The position numbers and the translations under genes are program-made. The notes below the pieces were generated by a model. It had not been told where the DNA came from and did no database searches. It saw only the letters and a list, made by a program, of their open reading frames with translations. 64,000 nucleotides of DNA from Ignavibacteriota bacterium (GTDB taxonomy: Bacteria > Bacteroidota > Ignavibacteria > UBA10030 > UBA6906), in contig CAWDEM010000004.1 of the NCBI GenBank assembly GCA_963801355.1, positions 352,001-416,000 on the forward strand, written 5' to 3'. Below, in pieces: positions 10,015 to 49,568 of this stretch (the stretch's first letter is position 1; every line of letters starts with the position of its first letter).

Positions 10015-11844
10015 ATGAAATCATTCCGTGAGCGGCTCCAGAATGAAGTGATCGTTTTCGATGGAGGTGTGGGCACATACCTCTACGAAAAGGGAATCTA
10101 CATTAACACGTGCTTTGACGAGCTGAACCTCACGAACGCTGATCTCGTGGGAGAAGTGCATCGTGACTACATCAATGCGGGCGCGGATGTCGTTGAAACA
10201 AACACATTCGGTGCAAACCGTTTCAAGTTGGCGCTGCACGGACTTGAAGCAAAGGTCTACGACATCAACCGTGCAGGAGCGGATATCGCCCGTAAGGTGG
10301 CCGGCGACACTACGCTCGTAGCCGGTTCAATCGGGCCGTTGGGTGTGCAGATTGAACCGATCGGCAAGCTCTCCTATGATGAAGCGAAAGAAGTATTCAA
10401 AGAGCAGGCCAGGGGATTACTGGACGGCCGGGTCGACCTGATGGTCCTGGAGACCTTTGCCCTTGTGAGTGAGTTACTCCAGGCTGTTCGTGCAATCCGT
10501 GAGCTGGATCCGGATATTCCGGTGATGGCACAGGTGACGGTGAATGATGACGGCGTGCTCCTCAGCGGGGCTACTCTTGAAACGTTCGTGACGGAAGTGA
10601 CGAAGTGCGCGATTGACGTGCTGGGGCTGAATTGTTCCGTAGGCCCTAAGGCGATGCTTGAAGCCCTTGAGCACCTCAAGCCGCTCACCAAGCTGCCGAT
10701 CTCCGTCCAGCCGAACGCCGGCGTTCCGCAGAATGTCGGCGGACGGAACATCTATATGACCTCGCCCGAATACATTGCCGAATATGCAAAACGGTTCATC
10801 CTTTCAGGAGCGCAGGTGGTGGGGGGCTGCTGCGGCACCAATCCCGGGCACATCAAGGCGATCCGGCGTGCAGTGCATGCGCTCCAGCCGTCGAAACGCA
10901 TGGATCTGACGGCGGCGGAGTTGAAAGTGACGGCCCCCGAAGCGGTTGCCATTGTGCCAATAGCCGAAAAATCACGCATCAGCAACAAGCTCGCCAAGCA
11001 CCAGTTTGTCACGCTGGTGGAGCTTGTCTCCCCCAAAGGAGTCTCACCGGCTTCTCAAGTGCAGAAAGCCCGCCGGCTGCACCACTTCGGGATCGATGCG
11101 ATCAATATTCCCGACGGGCCACGGGCATCGGCGCGGATGTCGGCACTGGCTCTTGCCGCCATCATCCAGAAGGAAGTGGGGATCGAGACCGTGCTGCATT
11201 TCGCCTGTCGTGACAGAAACGTGATCGGCATGCAATCGGACCTTCTGGGAGCGTGGGCGCTCGGGATGCACAATATCCTGGCCATTACCGGCGATCCTCC
11301 CAAACTCGGCAACTATCCGAACGCCACGGCCGTGTTTGACGTCGATGCCATCGGATTGACCAACATCATCAATCGCCTGAATCATGGCCTCGACCTTGCA
11401 GGCAATCCGATCGGCGAGCCGACGGGGTTCAGCATCGGTGTGGGCGTGAACCCCGGAGCGATCAATCTGGATGAAGAGCTCAGGCGGCTTGATTGGAAGA
11501 TCGAGGCAGGTGCCGAATACATGATTACACAACCGGTGTTTGACCTGCGTCTGCTTGAACAGTTTATGAAGAGGATCGCACACACGCACCTCCCGCTTCT
11601 CTGCGGCATCTGGCCCCTCATCTCGTACGGAAACGCGGAATTCATGAATAACGAAGTACCCGGTGCCAGCGTGCCTCCGGATATCCTCGCGCGGATGCGC
11701 AAGACCACGACAAAGGAAGAGGGCTTCCGCGAAGGAGTGGCAATTGCGAAGGAGACGTACGACCGTGTGAAGAACGACGTCGCCGGGGTGCAGCTTTCCG
11801 CCCCGATGGGACGCATCGAAGGTATCTTCATGATGATGGAGTAG
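10015..11844 (+). CDS. yitJ: Bifunctional homocysteine S-methyltransferase / 5,10-methylenetetrahydrofolate reductase
   Basis: N-terminal HMT domain (DGGVGT, ETNTFGAN, GLNCSVGP, GGCCGT) and C-terminal MetF domain (CRDRN, TGDPP, KIEAGAEYMITQPVFD). Confidence 0.92.
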   Translation: MKSFRERLQNEVIVFDGGVGTYLYEKGIYINTCFDELNLTNADLVGEVHRDYINAGADVVETNTFGANRFKLALHGLEAKVYDINRAGADIARKVAGDTTLVAGSIGPLGVQIEPIGKLSYDEAKEVFKEQARGLLDGRVDLMVLETFALVSELLQAVRAIRELDPDIPVMAQVTVNDDGVLLSGATLETFVTEVTKCAIDVLGLNCSVGPKAMLEALEHLKPLTKLPISVQPNAGVPQNVGGRNIYMTSPEYIAEYAKRFILSGAQVVGGCCGTNPGHIKAIRRAVHALQPSKRMDLTAAELKVTAPEAVAIVPIAEKSRISNKLAKHQFVTLVELVSPKGVSPASQVQKARRLHHFGIDAINIPDGPRASARMSALALAAIIQKEVGIETVLHFACRDRNVIGMQSDLLGAWALGMHNILAITGDPPKLGNYPNATAVFDVDAIGLTNIINRLNHGLDLAGNPIGEPTGFSIGVGVNPGAINLDEELRRLDWKIEAGAEYMITQPVFDLRLLEQFMKRIAHTHLPLLCGIWPLISYGNAEFMNNEVPGASVPPDILARMRKTTTKEEGFREGVAIAKETYDRVKNDVAGVQLSAPMGRIEGIFMMME

Positions 11845-43599: not shown

Positions 43600-44850
43600 T
43601 CACGAGAGTGCCTGTGTAATCCACGTGAGGTTTTGCAGTGGTATGAACCCGTAATTATAGAAGTTGAAACTGGTGATCCCCTGTGCACGTGCCACCCTCA
43701 TCCGGTCAAGGAATTCCGCCTGTCCGCCGCTCTCCGGGAGGCCGACCTGGAATCCGAGCGTCAGCGCGTTTTTCCCGAGGAGAGACCGGAGTGCGGTCAG
43801 CGGGGCATCCAGAGCAACACCGTCTTTGACATAGCCCAGGGCAAGAATCCCCCCCGTTGTGCGGGCACTGGTGGCGGGGTCGACACCGTTCAGCTTCCAC
43901 GCCGCAGAATCAATCGACATCATTTGCCGCAGCGGGACAGTTCCGGCACTCGACTTCAATTCCTCGAGGAGTGATTGGACGACGCCGGTGCGCCAGCGCT
44001 GGAACGGCTCCAGGATGTCCGCCGGGAGTTTATCAATGGTGGGGTACCTGGCGTTCGTTGAGTCCGGATCACGGAAGAATTCCTCGAGCGTGGCAGTGGT
44101 GAAATTGAGTGCCGGATGGATGTCGAATCCCGATTCCTTCGCCGAGCGGCGGCATGCGGCACAGAAACAGAGCCCCAGGAGAAACCGTGTCGCCGCTGTC
44201 AATGCCATTCCTTCCCGTTCATGATGAAAGCCATGCGTGTATCCCTGAAACTGGAGAGCCTCGAGCTCGATGAGGTCGACACCGTGCGCGGCGATATCCG
44301 CAACGAGGGAACCGAGATACCGGCGCACATCGCCGTTCGACGGGCAGAGATTATGATAGAGCGGATCGTCGAATGCGGTGCGCGTGACCAGGTCCGGATG
44401 TGCCATGCCGAGGGCGGTATTGTGACAGCATACCACCCAGCTCCGCAGCTGCATGCCGTGTTGGTCTGCTTGCCGGCGCGCTTCCCGGAGATCGTGCCCC
44501 GAAGACACAAGGGAGTGTGCCACCGGGGCTATGCGTCCGTACAGAGATGCTGTGGGCCGGAACATGACCGTGCCATCCTCGAGAAAGACCACCTTGCGCC
44601 GGGGATTGTGCGGGGCGAGAAATTTGCCGGCATGATACGCTGTGGCAAGACTGATGGAAGTGAGACCGTGTTCGCGGAGCCGCGGCATGACAACATCATA
44701 GCCTTCGTCGACGAGATCCCAAAGATATATCCACATGGATGCCGCCTGCCGGGTCGGCGGCGGGAATGCCGCGGTCGCGGCATAGCGCAGAGCAGGTCCG
44801 GCCACCACTGCGGCGGCGACCCGTTCCAGGAATTCTCTCCGTGTGAGCAT
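43600..44850 (-). CDS. Tat-exported glycoside-hydrolase-like TIM-barrel protein
   Basis: TRREFL Tat signal. W.Y.WDL, AYHAG, W...HN, LCPSN.DVR.Y, IELE and CFC..C (similar to the GH42-type Zn motif). Family not certain. Confidence 0.6.
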   Translation of the reverse strand: MLTRREFLERVAAAVVAGPALRYAATAAFPPPTRQAASMWIYLWDLVDEGYDVVMPRLREHGLTSISLATAYHAGKFLAPHNPRRKVVFLEDGTVMFRPTASLYGRIAPVAHSLVSSGHDLREARRQADQHGMQLRSWVVCCHNTALGMAHPDLVTRTAFDDPLYHNLCPSNGDVRRYLGSLVADIAAHGVDLIELEALQFQGYTHGFHHEREGMALTAATRFLLGLCFCAACRRSAKESGFDIHPALNFTTATLEEFFRDPDSTNARYPTIDKLPADILEPFQRWRTGVVQSLLEELKSSAGTVPLRQMMSIDSAAWKLNGVDPATSARTTGGILALGYVKDGVALDAPLTALRSLLGKNALTLGFQVGLPESGGQAEFLDRMRVARAQGITSFNFYNYGFIPLQNLTWITQALS

Positions 44851-44857
44851 GGTGCGG

Positions 44858-45895
44858 TTACTCCTCGTCGATGACCCAGAGGTCGAGCAGGTTGTCGGGC
44901 ATTCCCGCGATGAATCGCGATGGTTTGGAAAGCACCAATCCCGACTCGCGGTCATAGACATTGATGGGATAGGCGATGAAGAGATGCTCTTTGGCCCGGG
45001 TGCAGGCAACGTACATCAAACGGCGCTCCTCCTCCATCGTGTCTTCATTTAATGCCGCACGCGTCGTGGGGAAGCGCCCGTCGAGCGCGTAGATCACGAA
45101 GACCGTGTTCCACTCGAGCCCCTTCGCGCTGTGGATCGTGGAGAGAATGAGCTTTTCGTCTTCTGCGTCGGTGGGCGTGATGTCGGCAACGCTCTCGGCC
45201 GCCGGTTCGAGTGTCAGATCGGCAAGGAAGGAATTGAGCGTCCGGTACCGCTCGGCGATTTGCTGGAACATCTCCAGATCCTTCCGCCGTTTGTTGTGAT
45301 CGTCATACCGTTTGACAAAGACCGGCTCGTAGTACTGCAGGAGCTGCTGGATTTTGTCGGCGGGCGTGATGTGCGACGGAGCGACACCCTTCAGTGCTTC
45401 GAAAAGCGTGCGGAGTTTCTCCGGTGCGGCATGGTATTGGCCCCAGAATGCCGGGAGCGAAGTGGGGATCCCGGCTCCGCCTGCTGAACGGTGCCGGGCA
45501 AGGAGGTCCTCGATCACCTTTTCGGCCGTACGCGGGCCGACGCCGTCAACGAGCAACAGAATCCGATTCCAGGCGACGGCATCGCGGGGATTTTCGATCA
45601 CGCGGAGATAGGAAATCAGGTCTTTGATATGAGCGGTTTCGATGAACTTGAACCCCCCGAACTTGACGAACGGAATGTTCGCCTTGTTCAGCTCGATTTC
45701 CAGGTCGAACGAGAGATAACTCGAACGGAACAGCACAGCCATGTCATCGAGGGGGATCCCCTGCTCCCGCAGTTCAAGGACCTTCTGGATCACAAAACGC
45801 GACTGAAGATTTTCATTCTGTGCGACGACAATGCTGGGCAACTCGCCGCCGGGTTTGCTGGTGAAGAGCTCTTTGGTGTATTTGTGACGTTTCAT
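44858..45895 (-). CDS. uvrD: UvrD/PcrA-family helicase, C-terminal half (domains 2A/2B)
   Basis: Starts MKRHKYTKELFT (ATG overlaps the HMT stop). Contains AVLFRS, GG.KF....HIKD..SYL, GVGP, STIHSAKGLEW (motif V), EERRLMYVACTRAK (motif VI) and SRFI. Confidence 0.9.
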   Translation of the reverse strand: MKRHKYTKELFTSKPGGELPSIVVAQNENLQSRFVIQKVLELREQGIPLDDMAVLFRSSYLSFDLEIELNKANIPFVKFGGFKFIETAHIKDLISYLRVIENPRDAVAWNRILLLVDGVGPRTAEKVIEDLLARHRSAGGAGIPTSLPAFWGQYHAAPEKLRTLFEALKGVAPSHITPADKIQQLLQYYEPVFVKRYDDHNKRRKDLEMFQQIAERYRTLNSFLADLTLEPAAESVADITPTDAEDEKLILSTIHSAKGLEWNTVFVIYALDGRFPTTRAALNEDTMEEERRLMYVACTRAKEHLFIAYPINVYDRESGLVLSKPSRFIAGMPDNLLDLWVIDEE

Positions 45896-46794
45896 GATGC
45901 CCCGGAATGTCCGAACCGCTTGCGTAGCAGTGCAATGTACGCGGGTGTCGTGCCGCAACATCCGCCGATAATGCGCACTCCTTGCTGCCTCCATTGTTCG
46001 GCGAATTCGGCGTACTCTCCGGATGACACATCATGCACAAAGGTCTCCGCGCGTTCTTCCCCGGCTCTGCCGACGTTTGCATAGACGGCGAGAGGCAGGG
46101 GAGTGGCCGCTTGTAAGGCAAGAAGTGCCGGGGCTATGCGACGCGGAGAAATACAGTTGAGGGAGAATGCCGCGGGCGTGAGCCGGGTGATTGTCCTTAC
46201 GGCTTCCGCGATGGATTCACCGCCGTACAATACCCCATCCGCAGTGCATAAGAAACTGACCACCACCTCTTTGCCGGTGTCCATGGCGGCGCGGCAGGCG
46301 GCCCCGGCTTCCCTGATGGTGCCCATTGTCTCGAGCAGCAGGAAATCCACACCGGCCTCGGCCAACCGGCGGGCATGGAGGGAGTGCTCGCCGCGGAGCG
46401 CATCATCGTCCGGCACCAGGTCCGGGCGGTAGCAGTCTTCCAGGGGGGCCATGGAACCGGCGATCAGAATTGTGCGTCCCGTGCACTCTGCCCGCGCCTG
46501 CCGGGCCAGCGTTACCGCTTCACGCGTGACTGCTTCCGAACGGTCGGGCCAGCCGGCGTGAACGCATGCCCGGGACGTGGTCCTGAAGGTGTTTGTGGTA
46601 ATGATATCTGCACCCGCCGCGAGATATTCCCGGTGTATCTGCAGCACAAGCGGTGGATCGGTAGTCAGGGCGCGTGCGGACCAGAGGGGCTGACTGACAT
46701 CGAGGCCGCGCCGCTGCAACTCGGTCCCCATCGCGCCATCGAGAATAAGCTCTCCGGAGCGCTGCAAGGCTGTGTGCAGAGGGCCCGCCGTCAT
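45892..46794 (-). CDS. Homocysteine S-methyltransferase family protein (stand-alone), inserted within uvrD
   Basis: LDGAMGTEL, LWS, H..YL.AGADIITTNTF, GVDFLLLET, LNC, YAN and IIGGCCGTTP (Zn ligands intact). SD aggagg lies inside the last codons of uvrD-N. Confidence 0.92.
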   Translation of the reverse strand: MTAGPLHTALQRSGELILDGAMGTELQRRGLDVSQPLWSARALTTDPPLVLQIHREYLAAGADIITTNTFRTTSRACVHAGWPDRSEAVTREAVTLARQARAECTGRTILIAGSMAPLEDCYRPDLVPDDDALRGEHSLHARRLAEAGVDFLLLETMGTIREAGAACRAAMDTGKEVVVSFLCTADGVLYGGESIAEAVRTITRLTPAAFSLNCISPRRIAPALLALQAATPLPLAVYANVGRAGEERAETFVHDVSSGEYAEFAEQWRQQGVRIIGGCCGTTPAYIALLRKRFGHSGAS

Positions 46795-47786
46795 GCGCGC
46801 GCCCTCCTGAGAATCTCGTTGGTCAGATTCAAAATCGGTTGGGTGCTGCGATAGTTCTCTTCGAGCGTGATGATAGTGCAGCCGGGGTAGTCTTCGGGAA
46901 ACGTGAGGATATTCCGCACAGTCGCACCGCGGAAGGAGTAGATAGCCTGGGAGTCATCCCCTACCACCATCACATTGCCATGCTGCTGCGAGAGCAGCCG
47001 CACAATGTCCGCCTGGATGCGATTGGTGTCCTGAAATTCGTCCACCATGATGTATTTGTAGCGCTGTGCGAGCGTCCGCCGGACATGGTCATTGTCCCGC
47101 AGGAGTTGCCGGAGATACAGCAGCAGGTCGTCATAGTCCATCAGGTTGTGTTGTGCCTTGTATTCTTCGAAGGCACGCTGCAGGGCTGTGATGTCGTTCA
47201 GGAGTTCCTCGAAGTGCGGGTACTCTTCGTGCAGGATCTCTTTGATGGGCGTTGCCGTATTGACCGCCTTCGAAAAGATATCATAGAGAGTCTGTTTTCT
47301 TGGAAAACGCCTTTCACGCGTGTCCAGTTTCAACTTTGTACGCAGGAGGTTGACGACATCTTCCGCGTCGGACTGATCGACGATGCTGAAGGAGGAATCG
47401 AACCCGATCAATGGAGCGTATTGTCGCAGGACAAGGTTTGCAAACGAATGGAACGTCCCGCCGGCGACTTTCTCGCACCGGGCATCCAGGAGCATAGAAG
47501 CACGACGGAGCATTTCCTGTGCGGCGCGCCGGGTGAACGTGAGCAGGAGAATCGATTCGGGGTTCACGCCGAGTTCAACGAGATAGGCGACGCGGAAAGT
47601 AATGGTCCGTGTTTTTCCGGTGCCAGCGCCCGCGATGATCAGGTGGGGTCCGTTCGCCGAGGTGACCGCGGCGTATTGTGCCGGATTCAGTTCGTTCCGG
47701 TAGTTGATGCGAAATTGCCGGGGCGGTTCCGTCGGCACAAGGTCGACCGGCTGCTTCTTGAGGACGTATTTCTTGGCGTCGGTCAC
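46791..47786 (-). CDS. uvrD: UvrD/PcrA-family helicase, N-terminal half (domains 1A/1B)
   Basis: LNPAQ Q-motif, AGAGTGKT Walker A, TFTRRAAQEM, TFHS, DEFQDTN Walker B, VGDDSQAIYSFRGA and LEENYRSTQPIL. Ends NEILRRARA*. Confidence 0.92.
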   Translation of the reverse strand: MTDAKKYVLKKQPVDLVPTEPPRQFRINYRNELNPAQYAAVTSANGPHLIIAGAGTGKTRTITFRVAYLVELGVNPESILLLTFTRRAAQEMLRRASMLLDARCEKVAGGTFHSFANLVLRQYAPLIGFDSSFSIVDQSDAEDVVNLLRTKLKLDTRERRFPRKQTLYDIFSKAVNTATPIKEILHEEYPHFEELLNDITALQRAFEEYKAQHNLMDYDDLLLYLRQLLRDNDHVRRTLAQRYKYIMVDEFQDTNRIQADIVRLLSQQHGNVMVVGDDSQAIYSFRGATVRNILTFPEDYPGCTIITLEENYRSTQPILNLTNEILRRARA

Positions 47787-48787
47787 AGCTTCTCTACCGG
47801 ATAGCTGTCCAGAATATCCAGAATGGCTTCGATGGTTTTCGGCGAATTGCCTTCGGCGCGATTGTTGATGTAGGCGTAGAGTTTCTTCCCCTCCCGGGCG
47901 CAGCGGATGGCGGCTTCCGCAACGCCGGAGCGTATGGCGGGATTGACTTCCTTGATCGTATCGTACGGCTGGAAATATTCGACCGCCTCCTGATAGGTAC
48001 GGCCGGGTTTGAGCAGCGCGCGGATGACAGCAAAGGATGCCGGCAGAATATCCGCGCTGCCGATCTGTTCCTGAATCCCCGGCATCCTGGTCCAGCTGTT
48101 GAGCACATGCGCAATACCGTGGCTCTTGAGCATGGCAAGATAGTCCGGTGTCAGGAATTCGCTGTTGCGGATTTCGACACTGTAGGTGTACTCTCCCGGG
48201 ATCTTTGCGAAGAAGGCATCCAGCGCCCGGATGAAGACGGGCAAGGTCACTCCGGAATCCCGGGAAAAAGTGGAGAACTCAAAGATGATTGCTCCGCATT
48301 TCTGCCGTAATGTACTGACCGGGCCAAGAAACTGATCGGCAAAAAGTGAAGGATTCAGAAAATCGGTGTTCTCTTTTCCCGCATGAGCGCCATAGCGCGG
48401 CAGATTTGGATATCGCTTCACGGTGATGCGGTCGGTGACCTTGAGTGCGATGCTGAAGTGCTCCGGAGTCTGATCGTGCATCAGCCCCAGGGCCTTCGCA
48501 GAGGGGAAATCGTAGAGCGCGAAGTCAGCGCATACAGTAGGAAACAGGGTTGCGTATTCTGCGAGACAGGTCTGTTCGAACACGCGTTGTGAGGGGTAGG
48601 GGCGGTTGTAGACGATTCCCTGCCATCCGGGGTATTTCCAGGATGACGTGCCCAGCAGGATGCCGCGCTCGGCCCAGCGGCGAAGCCGGCCGGCATTGGA
48701 ACGGGCATAGGACGACAGAGGGGGCTCAGCGCCCCCTGTCTCGAACAGCGGCAGTTGTGTGCCGCGCGGGAGTTTGTGTACACGCAC
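47783..48787 (-). CDS. DUF72 (YecE/UPF0759) family protein
   Basis: GTSSWKYPGW.G..Y, L.EYA..F.TV, K....IT, VEIRN and YINNRAEG. GTG start inferred; GTGA overlap with uvrD-N. Confidence 0.88.
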   Translation of the reverse strand: MRVHKLPRGTQLPLFETGGAEPPLSSYARSNAGRLRRWAERGILLGTSSWKYPGWQGIVYNRPYPSQRVFEQTCLAEYATLFPTVCADFALYDFPSAKALGLMHDQTPEHFSIALKVTDRITVKRYPNLPRYGAHAGKENTDFLNPSLFADQFLGPVSTLRQKCGAIIFEFSTFSRDSGVTLPVFIRALDAFFAKIPGEYTYSVEIRNSEFLTPDYLAMLKSHGIAHVLNSWTRMPGIQEQIGSADILPASFAVIRALLKPGRTYQEAVEYFQPYDTIKEVNPAIRSGVAEAAIRCAREGKKLYAYINNRAEGNSPKTIEAILDILDSYPVEKL

Positions 48788-48809
48788 CTCGACCCGCCCT
48801 TCCCGTTGG

Positions 48810-49568
48810 TTATCCTCCCAGGTGCACGCCGGTGAGCACGGTGAACACGGACCAGACAATCCAGAGTGCAAACACCAGCACCAGCACCTTTGGCAGATGG
48901 CGCTGGAAGAGTTTTGACAGCCCGATGCTCACGACGGTGAGATCCCAGATAGTGAAAACATTCGCTTTTGACAGCGCCATATGCAGTTTGTTCTGGAGGT
49001 CGTAGTTGGACACAAACAGGGCGAGATTGGGTCCTGCGAACAACGAATCCATACCGTACTGTAGCAGCGTTGTCGCGACGGTTTCCAGGATGCTGATGTA
49101 GAAAGTCAGGCCGACGACTTCGACGACTTTCATATACGGGGCGCTCGCGTTCATTCCCCATTTGCCGAGCAGCCAGTACACCAGGGAAAGCAGGAACAGG
49201 GCGACCGGGGTAACGAGGGTAACGCCGACAGCCGATTGGATGCGGAAGATCATGGAATCCGGCCGCATGAACTCTGTCGCTTTTTCAGCCTGCTCGGCGG
49301 TCATTTTCCCTTGTGCCACGGCTTCATCGATGCTTTTCGTCATCAACGAGGCCATCTGATCGACGAGAGACGGGTTCGTGAGGATAAGCTGGTTCAAGAG
49401 CACGGCGATGAGGATGAACAGCAGCATCGGCACCAACCAGTTGCGTGTGGTTTTTCCGGTCAGCCGGACATTGTCGAACAGTTCTCCCGGTGCCGCAAAA
49501 ATATTCACGATTTGTTCGGTGATAGACATTGGCGCTACTGTTGCGCCGGGGGCGGTGGACTCTTCCAT
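48810..49568 (-). CDS. YIP1-family membrane protein
   Basis: IF.APGELFD...W..P motif, five hydrophobic segments, N.FTIW...V..IGL. Confidence 0.75.
   Translation of the reverse strand: MEESTAPGATVAPMSITEQIVNIFAAPGELFDNVRLTGKTTRNWLVPMLLFILIAVLLNQLILTNPSLVDQMASLMTKSIDEAVAQGKMTAEQAEKATEFMRPDSMIFRIQSAVGVTLVTPVALFLLSLVYWLLGKWGMNASAPYMKVVEVVGLTFYISILETVATTLLQYGMDSLFAGPNLALFVSNYDLQNKLHMALSKANVFTIWDLTVVSIGLSKLFQRHLPKVLVLVFALWIVWSVFTVLTGVHLGG

Follow-up and report, generated by a model that had tools for sequence, protein, structure and literature searches.

A UvrD/PcrA-family helicase encoded in two pieces around a homocysteine S-methyltransferase gene in an Ignavibacteriota bacterium

Organization of the locus

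The locus described here lies in a stretch of 64,000 nucleotides from an Ignavibacteriota bacterium (GenBank assembly GCA_963801355.1, contig CAWDEM010000004.1, positions 352,001 to 416,000 of the forward strand), which is called the window below and whose coordinates are used throughout unless a genome (G) or locus (L) handle is given. On the minus strand of the window, a helicase of the UvrD/PcrA family is encoded in two pieces, an N-terminal half (uvrD-N) and a C-terminal half (uvrD-C), with a gene for a homocysteine S-methyltransferase (HMT) lying between them (Table 1). A preliminary description of this DNA, made from its letters alone, had reported a helicase gene in two pieces around a complete HMT gene, with ATGA overlaps at both junctions, and this organization was recovered from the open reading frames (ORFs), the sequence, and matches to Pfam and NCBIfam. 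The AGGAGG that the same description had derived from the helicase Arg-Arg codons is likewise present in the sequence, at 46808-46803. The split is real and widespread, and it is informative about helicase mechanism; it is not a case of functional coupling between HMT and the helicase.

A DUF72-family gene, the N half, HMT and the C half run head to tail and, according to the ORF list and the sequence, are joined by successive 4-nt overlaps (GTGA, ATGA and ATGA). The whole chain is co-oriented and shows the kind of short overlap, -4 or -1 nt, that is considered below in connection with coupled cistrons.

Table 1. Features of the split-helicase locus, in window coordinates
Feature	Coordinates	Strand	Details
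DUF72-family gene	47783..48871	-	362 aa; PF01904, E 1.5e-28; heads the chain of overlapped genes
GTGA overlap, DUF72 stop / N-half start	47783..47786	-	read from sequence; absent from the preliminary description
Helicase N half, uvrD-N	46791..47786	-	331 aa; GTG start; ends ...NEILRRARA (stop); domains 1A and 1B and the first strand-helix of 2A; Walker A through motif IV
AGGAGG, Shine-Dalgarno-like hexamer	46803..46808	-	candidate, read from sequence; within N-half Arg-Arg codons, 8 nt ahead of the HMT ATG
ATGA overlap, N-half stop / HMT start	46791..46794	-	read from sequence
Homocysteine S-methyltransferase (HMT) gene	45892..46794	-	300 aa; occupies the gap between the helicase halves
ATGA overlap, HMT stop / C-half start	45892..45895	-	read from sequence
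Helicase C half, uvrD-C	44858..45895	-	345 aa; ATG at 45895; begins MKRHKYTKELFT; remainder of domain 2A and 2B; motifs IVa-VI

Helicase domains and the position of the break

Helicases of superfamily 1A (SF1A) are textbook single-chain motors, with an ATP site between domains 1A and 2A. In Pfam and NCBIfam searches, the N half of the window's helicase matches PF00580 over its full length (1-271 of 271, E 2.7e-76) and spans positions 3-295 of the PcrA profile, and the C half matches PF13361/PF13538 and spans positions 299-637. The PF13361 match is itself divided by the break, with positions 1-23 on the N-half tail and positions 212-347, the best stretch, on the C half (E 3.9e-50). Taken across the two halves, the domain content is PF00580 followed by PF13361, as in the SF1A helicases UvrD, PcrA and Rep. 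Against solved structures, the N half aligns with PcrA residues 11-301, UvrD 8-298 and Rep 3-290, and the C half with PcrA 307-647, UvrD 305-641 and Rep 296-638. No helicase motif region is lost between the halves, as the preliminary description had stated and as the profile coverage agrees. Because the N half runs to PcrA residue 301 and the C half starts from residue 307, the break is placed in a short, length-variable loop that directly follows motif IV; from the PcrA domain map, we take this loop to lie within RecA-like domain 2A and not at a boundary between domains.

The exact point of the join can be read from intact orthologues, in which the corresponding stretch is ...RARE-KYTKVLYT... 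and which therefore place the homologous join directly after the last N-half residue. The seamless RRA-RHKY join proposed earlier is corrected accordingly: the C half carries about four N-terminal residues (M-K-R-H) that are extra relative to the intact orthologues.

The ATPase and translocation motifs of SF1A helicases are conserved in both halves. In an alignment of 36 N halves (A1; 71% mean column identity), the columns GAGTGKT, VDE.QDT, GDD.Q.IY.FRG and EN.RS (ENYRS) are invariant or nearly so, and the same holds for HSAKGLEW and EERRLMYVA.TRA in an alignment of 36 C halves (A2; 72% mean column identity). We take these columns to be the Walker A, DExx, III, IV, V and VI motifs. What the locus does not encode is one chain with all four subdomains, for there is a stop after residue 331 and a separate start for the C half. 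The PcrA equivalog model TIGR01073 scores 281.9 bits on the N half and 164.1 bits on the C half, against a cut-off of 911.2, and neither half reaches the equivalog cut-offs for UvrD (TIGR01075) or Rep (TIGR01074). A canonical UvrD/PcrA of ~750 aa, about 40% identical, is also present in each genome (G000:C8:220026 in the genome of the window), which makes the split helicase (~665 aa) a paralogue.

Distribution of the split helicase

The N half was searched against 41 related genomes, 26 orthologous loci were fetched, and N, HMT and C were placed in them by tblastn. The order N-HMT-C recurs at 15 of these loci, so the arrangement is not unique to the genome of the window. The others comprise one locus with N-HMT and no C half within 5 kb, two with N alone (one of them on a short contig), two with an intact gene of 669 aa, two with a gap of ~45 nt and no gene in it, and four with a gap of 0.8-0.9 kb that lacks HMT. 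Identity ranges from 60 to 98% over the 25 relatives' loci carrying both halves.

Within the order to which the window belongs, an N-half orthologue was found at E<=1e-90 in 186 of 277 genomes. By family (designated f1 to f9), the counts are 43/67 in f1, 7/11 in f2, 3/3 in f3, 2/3 in f4, 38/44 in f5, 0/4 in f6, 16/55 in f7, 76/86 in f8 and 0/3 in f9. Among the 150 matches listed, the open frames are nearly all 327-400 aa long, the length counts being verified only at the fetched loci. The listed matches and checked loci include just two genomes of the order with a truly intact gene, both in f4 (669 aa). Four longer frames (G018, G198, G144 and G097) still belong to split genes and merely extend upstream; one further locus (L141, genome G203) has unread bases in the C half. 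Across the class, an N-half match was found in 247 of 401 genomes, and among the matches listed those of other orders are mostly 657-790 aa. Family f19, outside the order, has the split in all seven of its genomes (frames of 291-364 aa). Each of the five Kryptonia loci, that of Candidatus Kryptonium thompsonii among them, has an intact gene of 661 aa, and locus L089 is intact as well. In sum, Kryptonia and most of the other orders have the helicase in one piece, and it is split at the same loop in the listed orthologues from the window's order and in f19.

Standalone C halves are common in public data: 2967 clusters with lengths of 189-604 aa match at E<=1e-40, and each of the best 120 has a length of 327-374 aa. 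The public names of the halves are generic (DNA helicase II/PcrA, or ATP-binding domain-containing protein). Among the best 150 representatives from other lineages, most are 590-980 aa, and the 19 under 450 aa are indistinguishable from contig-end fragments. At one relative's locus (L029, genome G020), no canonical start codon adjoins the RHKY of the C half, and an assembly error is possible there.

Contents of the gap and separation of the halves

What lies between the halves was surveyed at 80 unique loci at which both helicase parts are present. HMT fills the gap at 25 of them, all in the clade formed by the window's family. A protein of 255-294 aa from the EEP family, with a lipoprotein-type signal sequence as read by eye from its translation, takes its place at 14 loci (the PF03372 match is weak, E 8e-7). 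A pair of small ORFs occurs at three, one of 115 aa and one of 189 aa that is hydrophobic and contains HExxH, neither having a Pfam match. A bare spacer of -1 to 497 nt separates the halves at 30 loci, and the gene is intact at the remaining eight. Every insert lies on the helicase strand. One HMT locus (L052) holds an additional DUF456 gene in the gap, and another (L058) has 1.4 kb more DNA after HMT. Bare forms are also nested within insert-bearing clades (L070, L108 and L045); L070, with a spacer of 15 nt, is nested within the HMT clade.

The close packing seen in the window is shared by only part of its relatives. At the 25 HMT loci, the N-half stop and HMT start overlap by -4 in 11 cases and by -1 in three; the HMT stop and C-half start overlap by -4 in ten, are separated by a spacer of 9-119 nt in 11 and by 1420 nt in one, and could not be related to each other in three. 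In the other classes, the stop of the insert meets the C-half start with a -4 overlap at 6/14 EEP loci and a -1 overlap at 3/3 loci with the small-gene pair.

The halves can also be unlinked altogether. In all five genomes checked in which the C half is not beside the N half, it was found elsewhere: 12.9 kb downstream in G024, and on a different contig in the other four, namely G016 and three genomes of f19 (G286, G297 and G342). These unlinked C halves are 65-76% identical to that of the window, and the f19 C half begins MQRHKFQKELYT. In f19, unrelated genes follow the N half, and the C half, on its other contig, stands behind unrelated small ORFs (L128:2698-3303 and L147:1-1500).

Four bare spacers each form a long, imperfect hairpin made up of short tandem motifs (L078:3870-3997, L087:1158-1251, L097:3913-4000 and L100:3927-3997; fold z -2.8 to -4.9). 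The hairpin was rejected as a general feature of bare spacers, since only 4 of 9 folded spacers reach z<=-2.8 and the other five are unremarkable.

Integrity of the assembly

The short contigs of four independent public runs were compared with window positions 44700-47900. The N/HMT junction is bridged by contigs of runs X1, X2 and X5, and the HMT/C junction by contigs of X1 and X5; no contig in the four runs joins the helicase halves across the whole insert. An identical N protein of 331 aa was called in seven members of its 90% cluster, from JGI, NCBI, ENA and Logan, by independent gene callers. A misassembly had been raised as a possibility with the original description of the locus and is excluded by the bridging of both junctions in independent runs together with the same gene order at 15 of 26 relatives' loci.

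In run X3, one contig of 238 nt (record 18; depth 9, ~98% alike) joins position 46052 to 46782, so that 46053-46781 are missing. The 729 nt lost (243 codons, in frame) belong to HMT, and both junctions are kept. This single contig, which is a weak hint, may represent an HMT-deletion variant that leaves an ORF of 57 codons overlapping both halves.

The homocysteine S-methyltransferase

The protein encoded in the gap has a full-length S-methyl_trans domain (PF02574 positions 1-282 of 283, E 5.8e-70, 236.8 bits against a cut-off of 22), and it falls below the equivalog cut-off of NF007020 (197.2 bits against 215). It is a member of the PF02574 family, to judge from these profile scores, which leave its exact substrate unassigned. 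Cys121, Cys214 (in LNC) and Cys279-Cys280 (in GGCCG) are invariant in all 25 gap-resident orthologues; Cys214 and the Cys279-Cys280 pair presumably supply the zinc ligands, one Cys plus a Cys-Cys pair, of homocysteine S-methyltransferases. On its sequence, HMT looks functional.

With three other PF02574 domains, the genome has four genes of this kind, counting the gap-resident HMT. One lies in the window at about 10051-10875 on the plus strand (G000:C4:362051-362875), within a frame of 629 aa, and two more are found elsewhere on the contig, in frames of 676 and 322 aa. HMT is only 28-31% identical to the three, and a recent duplication of any resident gene was therefore rejected as its origin.

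Orthologues of HMT occur in 55 of 67 f1 genomes and in one of three f3 genomes (at 40% identity), with none in f2, f4, f5, f6, f7, f8 or f9. HMT lies within ~600 nt downstream of the N half in ~32 of the 44 f1 genomes that have the N half, by hand comparison of tables. In G016 it is 9.2 kb from the N half. Fifteen f1 genomes have the HMT orthologue and no detected N-half orthologue (12/12 in genus g20 and 3/4 in g16), and at six fetched loci of the g20/g16 type neither N, C nor DUF72 was found within ~4 kb of HMT.

Selection on the halves and their predicted reassembly

The ratio of nonsynonymous to synonymous divergence (dN/dS) was estimated by the Nei-Gojobori method. Against the closest relative, L021 (dS 0.33-0.50), it is 0.025 for the N half, 0.031 for the C half and 0.204 for HMT. 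In most pairs the N half gives 0.025-0.07 and the C half 0.03-0.11, with a top value of 0.123 (N half against L031); distant pairs, in which dS is saturating, give 0.04-0.12 for the helicase halves. Strong purifying selection thus acts on the N and C halves alike. The preliminary description had seen no decay in either half and had proposed dN/dS as a check, and the strong constraint on both halves, together with the conservation of the motifs, bears it out.

A predicted complex of the N and C halves, also proposed at that stage, scored 0.81, and the best of three controls scored 0.00; the 0.81 mark is reached by 58 of 80 solved complexes and by 2 of 110 mismatched pairs. Between runs of the model, at least 96% of the contacts agree, and the partner has a predicted local distance difference test (pLDDT) value of at least 80. 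The modelled interface places the N-half tail (residues 305-331) against C-half residues 2-20 and 284-305. The model supports a non-covalent reassociation of N and C, with the qualification that single-chain structures of PcrA, UvrD and Rep have been solved and that its success may reflect a remembered likeness to these rather than binding by this copy.

Origin and evolution of the split

Halves that are intact, conserved and under purifying selection, together with the complex model, make a two-subunit helicase the best reading of the locus. We consider it likely that one ancient fission, in the ancestor of the order, gave rise to a two-subunit SF1A helicase and that the intercistronic gap later took up passenger genes. 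An ancestral single-chain paralogue would have been cut into two cistrons at the loop after motif IV, and the products would reassemble non-covalently into the ordinary helicase fold by complementing domain 2A. The new intercistronic site would tolerate insertions that keep co-transcription. HMT would have been acquired in the ancestor of f1, and the EEP lipoprotein, the 115- plus 189-aa pair and (in one genome) DUF456 elsewhere; passengers would sometimes have been lost again, and the halves sometimes separated in the genome. In the window, the 4-nt overlaps that chain DUF72, N, HMT and C suggest that the C half is probably translated by termination-reinitiation from HMT. That the C half is made only if HMT is translated may be a local consequence of this gene packing and not a conserved regulatory link.

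The preliminary description had pictured a domesticated arrangement in which insertion of HMT yielded a two-subunit helicase. The two-subunit part of that proposal is supported by conservation, selection and the complex model; the part that made HMT the agent of the split is not, since the split is order-wide and the HMT orthologue is confined to one family.

Whether the fission happened once can be approached from the junction sequences and from trees. In the HMT, EEP, small-gene-pair and f19 forms, the N half ends RAR[EDA] followed by the stop and the C half starts M(x)RHKY. To judge from these termini, the extra Arg-His at the C-half start is a shared derived character of the four forms. 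A maximum-likelihood tree was built by a quick search from 80 rows of joined N and C halves, with Kryptonia as the root. It places the intact Kryptonia rows first, then the intact L089, an HMT clade of 27 rows, and a clade of 47 rows in which a group of EEP and bare forms stands together with the small-gene-pair rows and both intact f4 rows. In an approximately unbiased (AU) test on 92 rows, a tree in which the 84 split rows were constrained together had a log-likelihood 15.75 above that of the free quick tree (p-AU 0.666). A single fission is, in other words, not rejected by the AU test, and it fits the shared Arg-His junction.

Several observations weigh against a single fission followed by the taking up of passengers. 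The bare junction of f8 and f7 differs from that of the other forms, with a variable N-half tail after ILKRG and a C half that starts MY[YT]KELYT, and it could represent an independent second fission at the same loop. In the free quick tree, both intact f4 sequences fall within the split clade, with a support of 99 in the Shimodaira-Hasegawa-like approximate likelihood-ratio test (SH-aLRT), and at face value this placement calls for two fissions or a clean re-fusion. Since the constrained tree has the better score, we do not take the placement to prove two fissions; the AU result amounts to a failure to reject one fission and no more, and both trees come from quick searches. A few copies carry signs of decay that could also be assembly errors: a C half in two frames in L033 (genome G007), three TGA codons inside the N-half match at G210:C272:3041-3880, and a truncated N half with HMT fragments in L064. 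Finally, the split could be just as old and yet have had another cause, namely the arrival of an inserted gene.

According to this last explanation, which is possible although we rate it well below fission first, a gene insertion, possibly by way of a mobile element, broke the loop, the cargo was later swapped or lost, and the N-half stop and the M-x-R-H start are its scars. The junction with the N-half stop at the ancestral join and three to four new C-half residues is indeed common to all insert-bearing classes and f19, and the bare loci L070, L108 and L045, nested as they are in insert clades, indicate that inserts can be lost. A precedent is available in phage Aeh1, where, according to the portion of the report available, mobE divides the nrdA gene and the two parts have acquired new tails (PMC3045599). 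However, no transposase, endonuclease, integrase or flanking repeat was seen at any examined gap, no insert class is common to the deep branches, and a bare clade of 26 rows is without any trace of an insert. It is very unlikely that HMT itself split the helicase and now serves as its functional partner, whether by gating it through methionine and S-adenosylmethionine metabolism or as part of a three-protein complex, as the preliminary description had suggested. The tight ATGA overlaps at both window junctions, the N-HMT-C order at 15/26 relatives' loci, the proximity of HMT to the N half in most f1 genomes that have it, and the purifying selection on HMT would all suit such a partnership. But the split is far wider than HMT, gaps without HMT are either empty or occupied by genes for exported or membrane proteins, 15 genomes have HMT and no N-half orthologue that was found, and so the metabolic tie and the complex are without comparative support. 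Moreover, L070, inside the HMT clade, has the helicase and no HMT, the C half of G016 lies on another contig with HMT 9.2 kb from the N half, a spacer of 9-119 nt separates the HMT stop from the C-half start at 11 of 25 loci, and the X3 contig lacks 729 nt of HMT between intact junctions.

The two remaining alternatives have little to recommend them. That the two ORFs are rejoined, by a long ribosomal bypass, by RNA or protein splicing or by programmed DNA excision, would be in keeping with halves that abut and have lost no motif, but we regard it as extremely improbable, in agreement with the preliminary description, which had ranked bypass and excision low. Where the halves lie on different contigs or 12.9 kb apart, as in 5/5 genomes checked, none of these processes can work. 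There is no room for an intein, the N half ends at the ancestral join with about four residues added to the C half, the C half has its own start codon at almost all loci, and the 331-aa N half was called independently in seven cluster members. An Rfam scan of 44000-49500 at E<=1 returned only a chance snoRNA match (E 0.93), and no direct repeats on either side of the insert turned up when 45800-46900 was searched for them; with the Pfam results, these searches agree with the earlier statement that transposase, intein, ribozyme and repeats are lacking. The idea that the split helicase is a pseudogene decaying after a disruptive event, for which the frameshifts or stops in L033, G210 and L064 and the failure to find an N-half orthologue in any of the 12 g20 genomes might be cited, is hardly credible in view of the low dN/dS in most pairs, the 60-98% identity across 25 loci with both halves, catalytic motif columns that are invariant or nearly so in alignments of 36 sequences, and the retention of both halves where they are unlinked.

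A refinement of the fission reading, which we think improbable, is that the gap is a selected cargo slot, in which a co-oriented ORF sets the amount of C subunit made per N subunit and thereby regulates assembly of the helicase. If so, any gap ORF (HMT, EEP, the small-gene pair or the 57-codon remnant) would be kept co-oriented and would often overlap the C-half start, the active helicase would be tied to the expression of unrelated genes, and the split would be kept for control of the motor through its 2A/2B module.

Relation to known systems

Split genes are known from Nanoarchaeum equitans, for example that for reverse gyrase. A different solution is used by phage T4 gene 60, in which ribosomes hop from a take-off codon to a matching landing codon of the same mRNA and leave the short gap between them untranslated. 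The helicase locus does not have the properties of a programmed bypass, for its gap is ~0.9 kb long and filled by a translated gene, and the halves are unlinked in the five genomes mentioned above. The Mycoplasma pair MPN340/MPN341 was considered as a precedent and set aside, since it is, in the part of the source available, a short paralogue and not a split gene.

The window's helicase resembles PcrA, UvrD and Rep (PDB 1PJR/3PJR, 2IS1 and 1UAA) in its domains and motif order, and the complex model rebuilds the same predicted fold from two chains. It differs from them in consisting of two polypeptides, in being a ~665-aa paralogue, and in scoring far below the equivalog cut-offs. The closest described arrangement is that of Aeromonas phage Aeh1, in which nrdA is divided into nrdA-a and nrdA-b by the homing-endonuclease gene mobE (Crona et al. 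2010, PMC3045599). In both cases, an enzyme gene is in two parts with a whole gene between them and short new sequence at the break, and in Aeh1, as far as the portion of that report available goes, function is achieved by non-covalent assembly with no splicing. Unlike mobE, the lodger in the window is a metabolic enzyme without a mobility function, and lodgers differ by lineage; none of the intervening ORFs is a homing endonuclease or another mobility gene, since they comprise HMT, the EEP lipoprotein and DUF456 along with proteins that have no match in Pfam. The helicase locus is also chromosomal and bacterial, persists across an order, and has only about four residues of new sequence at the break.

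The 'fractured genes' of Dassa et al. (2009, PMC2677866), in the part of that paper available, likewise consist of a two-piece gene with an unrelated ORF between, there a free-standing endonuclease gene flanked by the halves of a split intein. The helicase junction has no intein halves, adding about four C-half residues and no extra Pfam domain, so protein splicing is not expected and the chains should stay separate. Prokaryotic gene fission into adjacent, translationally coupled cistrons for the parts of one complex, with -4 and -1 overlaps as typical junctions, has been described by Huber et al. (2023, PMC10666635; also available in part). In contrast to the coupled-cistron fissions known from that work, the helicase is broken inside a RecA-like domain, and the pair is interrupted by passengers and sometimes unlinked. 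The literature search, outside which most subscription journals lay, turned up neither a published split UvrD-family helicase nor an account of this locus. Gene fission into coupled cistrons is well known; a natural split inside 2A of a UvrD-family helicase with serial capture of genes was not found described in that search.

If both subunits are active, a break in 2A after motif IV would show that covalent continuity is dispensable at that point, and the pair would provide an existing template for helicases that are split or whose assembly is conditional. The locus is also a clean example of the fate of a gene after fission, in which an intercistronic site gains, loses and exchanges passengers and the halves can become unlinked. 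For annotation, it is a reminder that such halves, under their generic public names, may be taken for truncations or, as happened at this locus, for one gene broken by the arrival of an adjacent one.

Neighbouring genes

In the HMT class, 21 of 25 rows have a DUF72 homologue upstream of the N half, as do the two bare rows nested in that clade, and it was not found in any EEP, other bare, small-gene-pair or intact row. This restriction to the HMT clade led to its rejection as a general partner of the helicase. Within the HMT-bearing family, the distance from DUF72 to the helicase is sometimes greater by ~1 kb. The flanks of five loci (L113, L086, L121, L091 and L089) contain unrelated housekeeping genes and no conserved neighbours of the helicase, so that they do not point to any pathway. 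Downstream of the C half in the window, an ORF of 416 aa (43600-44850, minus strand) opens 7 nt past the C-half stop; its N terminus, MLTRREFLERV..., is twin-arginine-like by eye. It is without a Pfam match and is kept downstream of the C half at the loci of six relatives.

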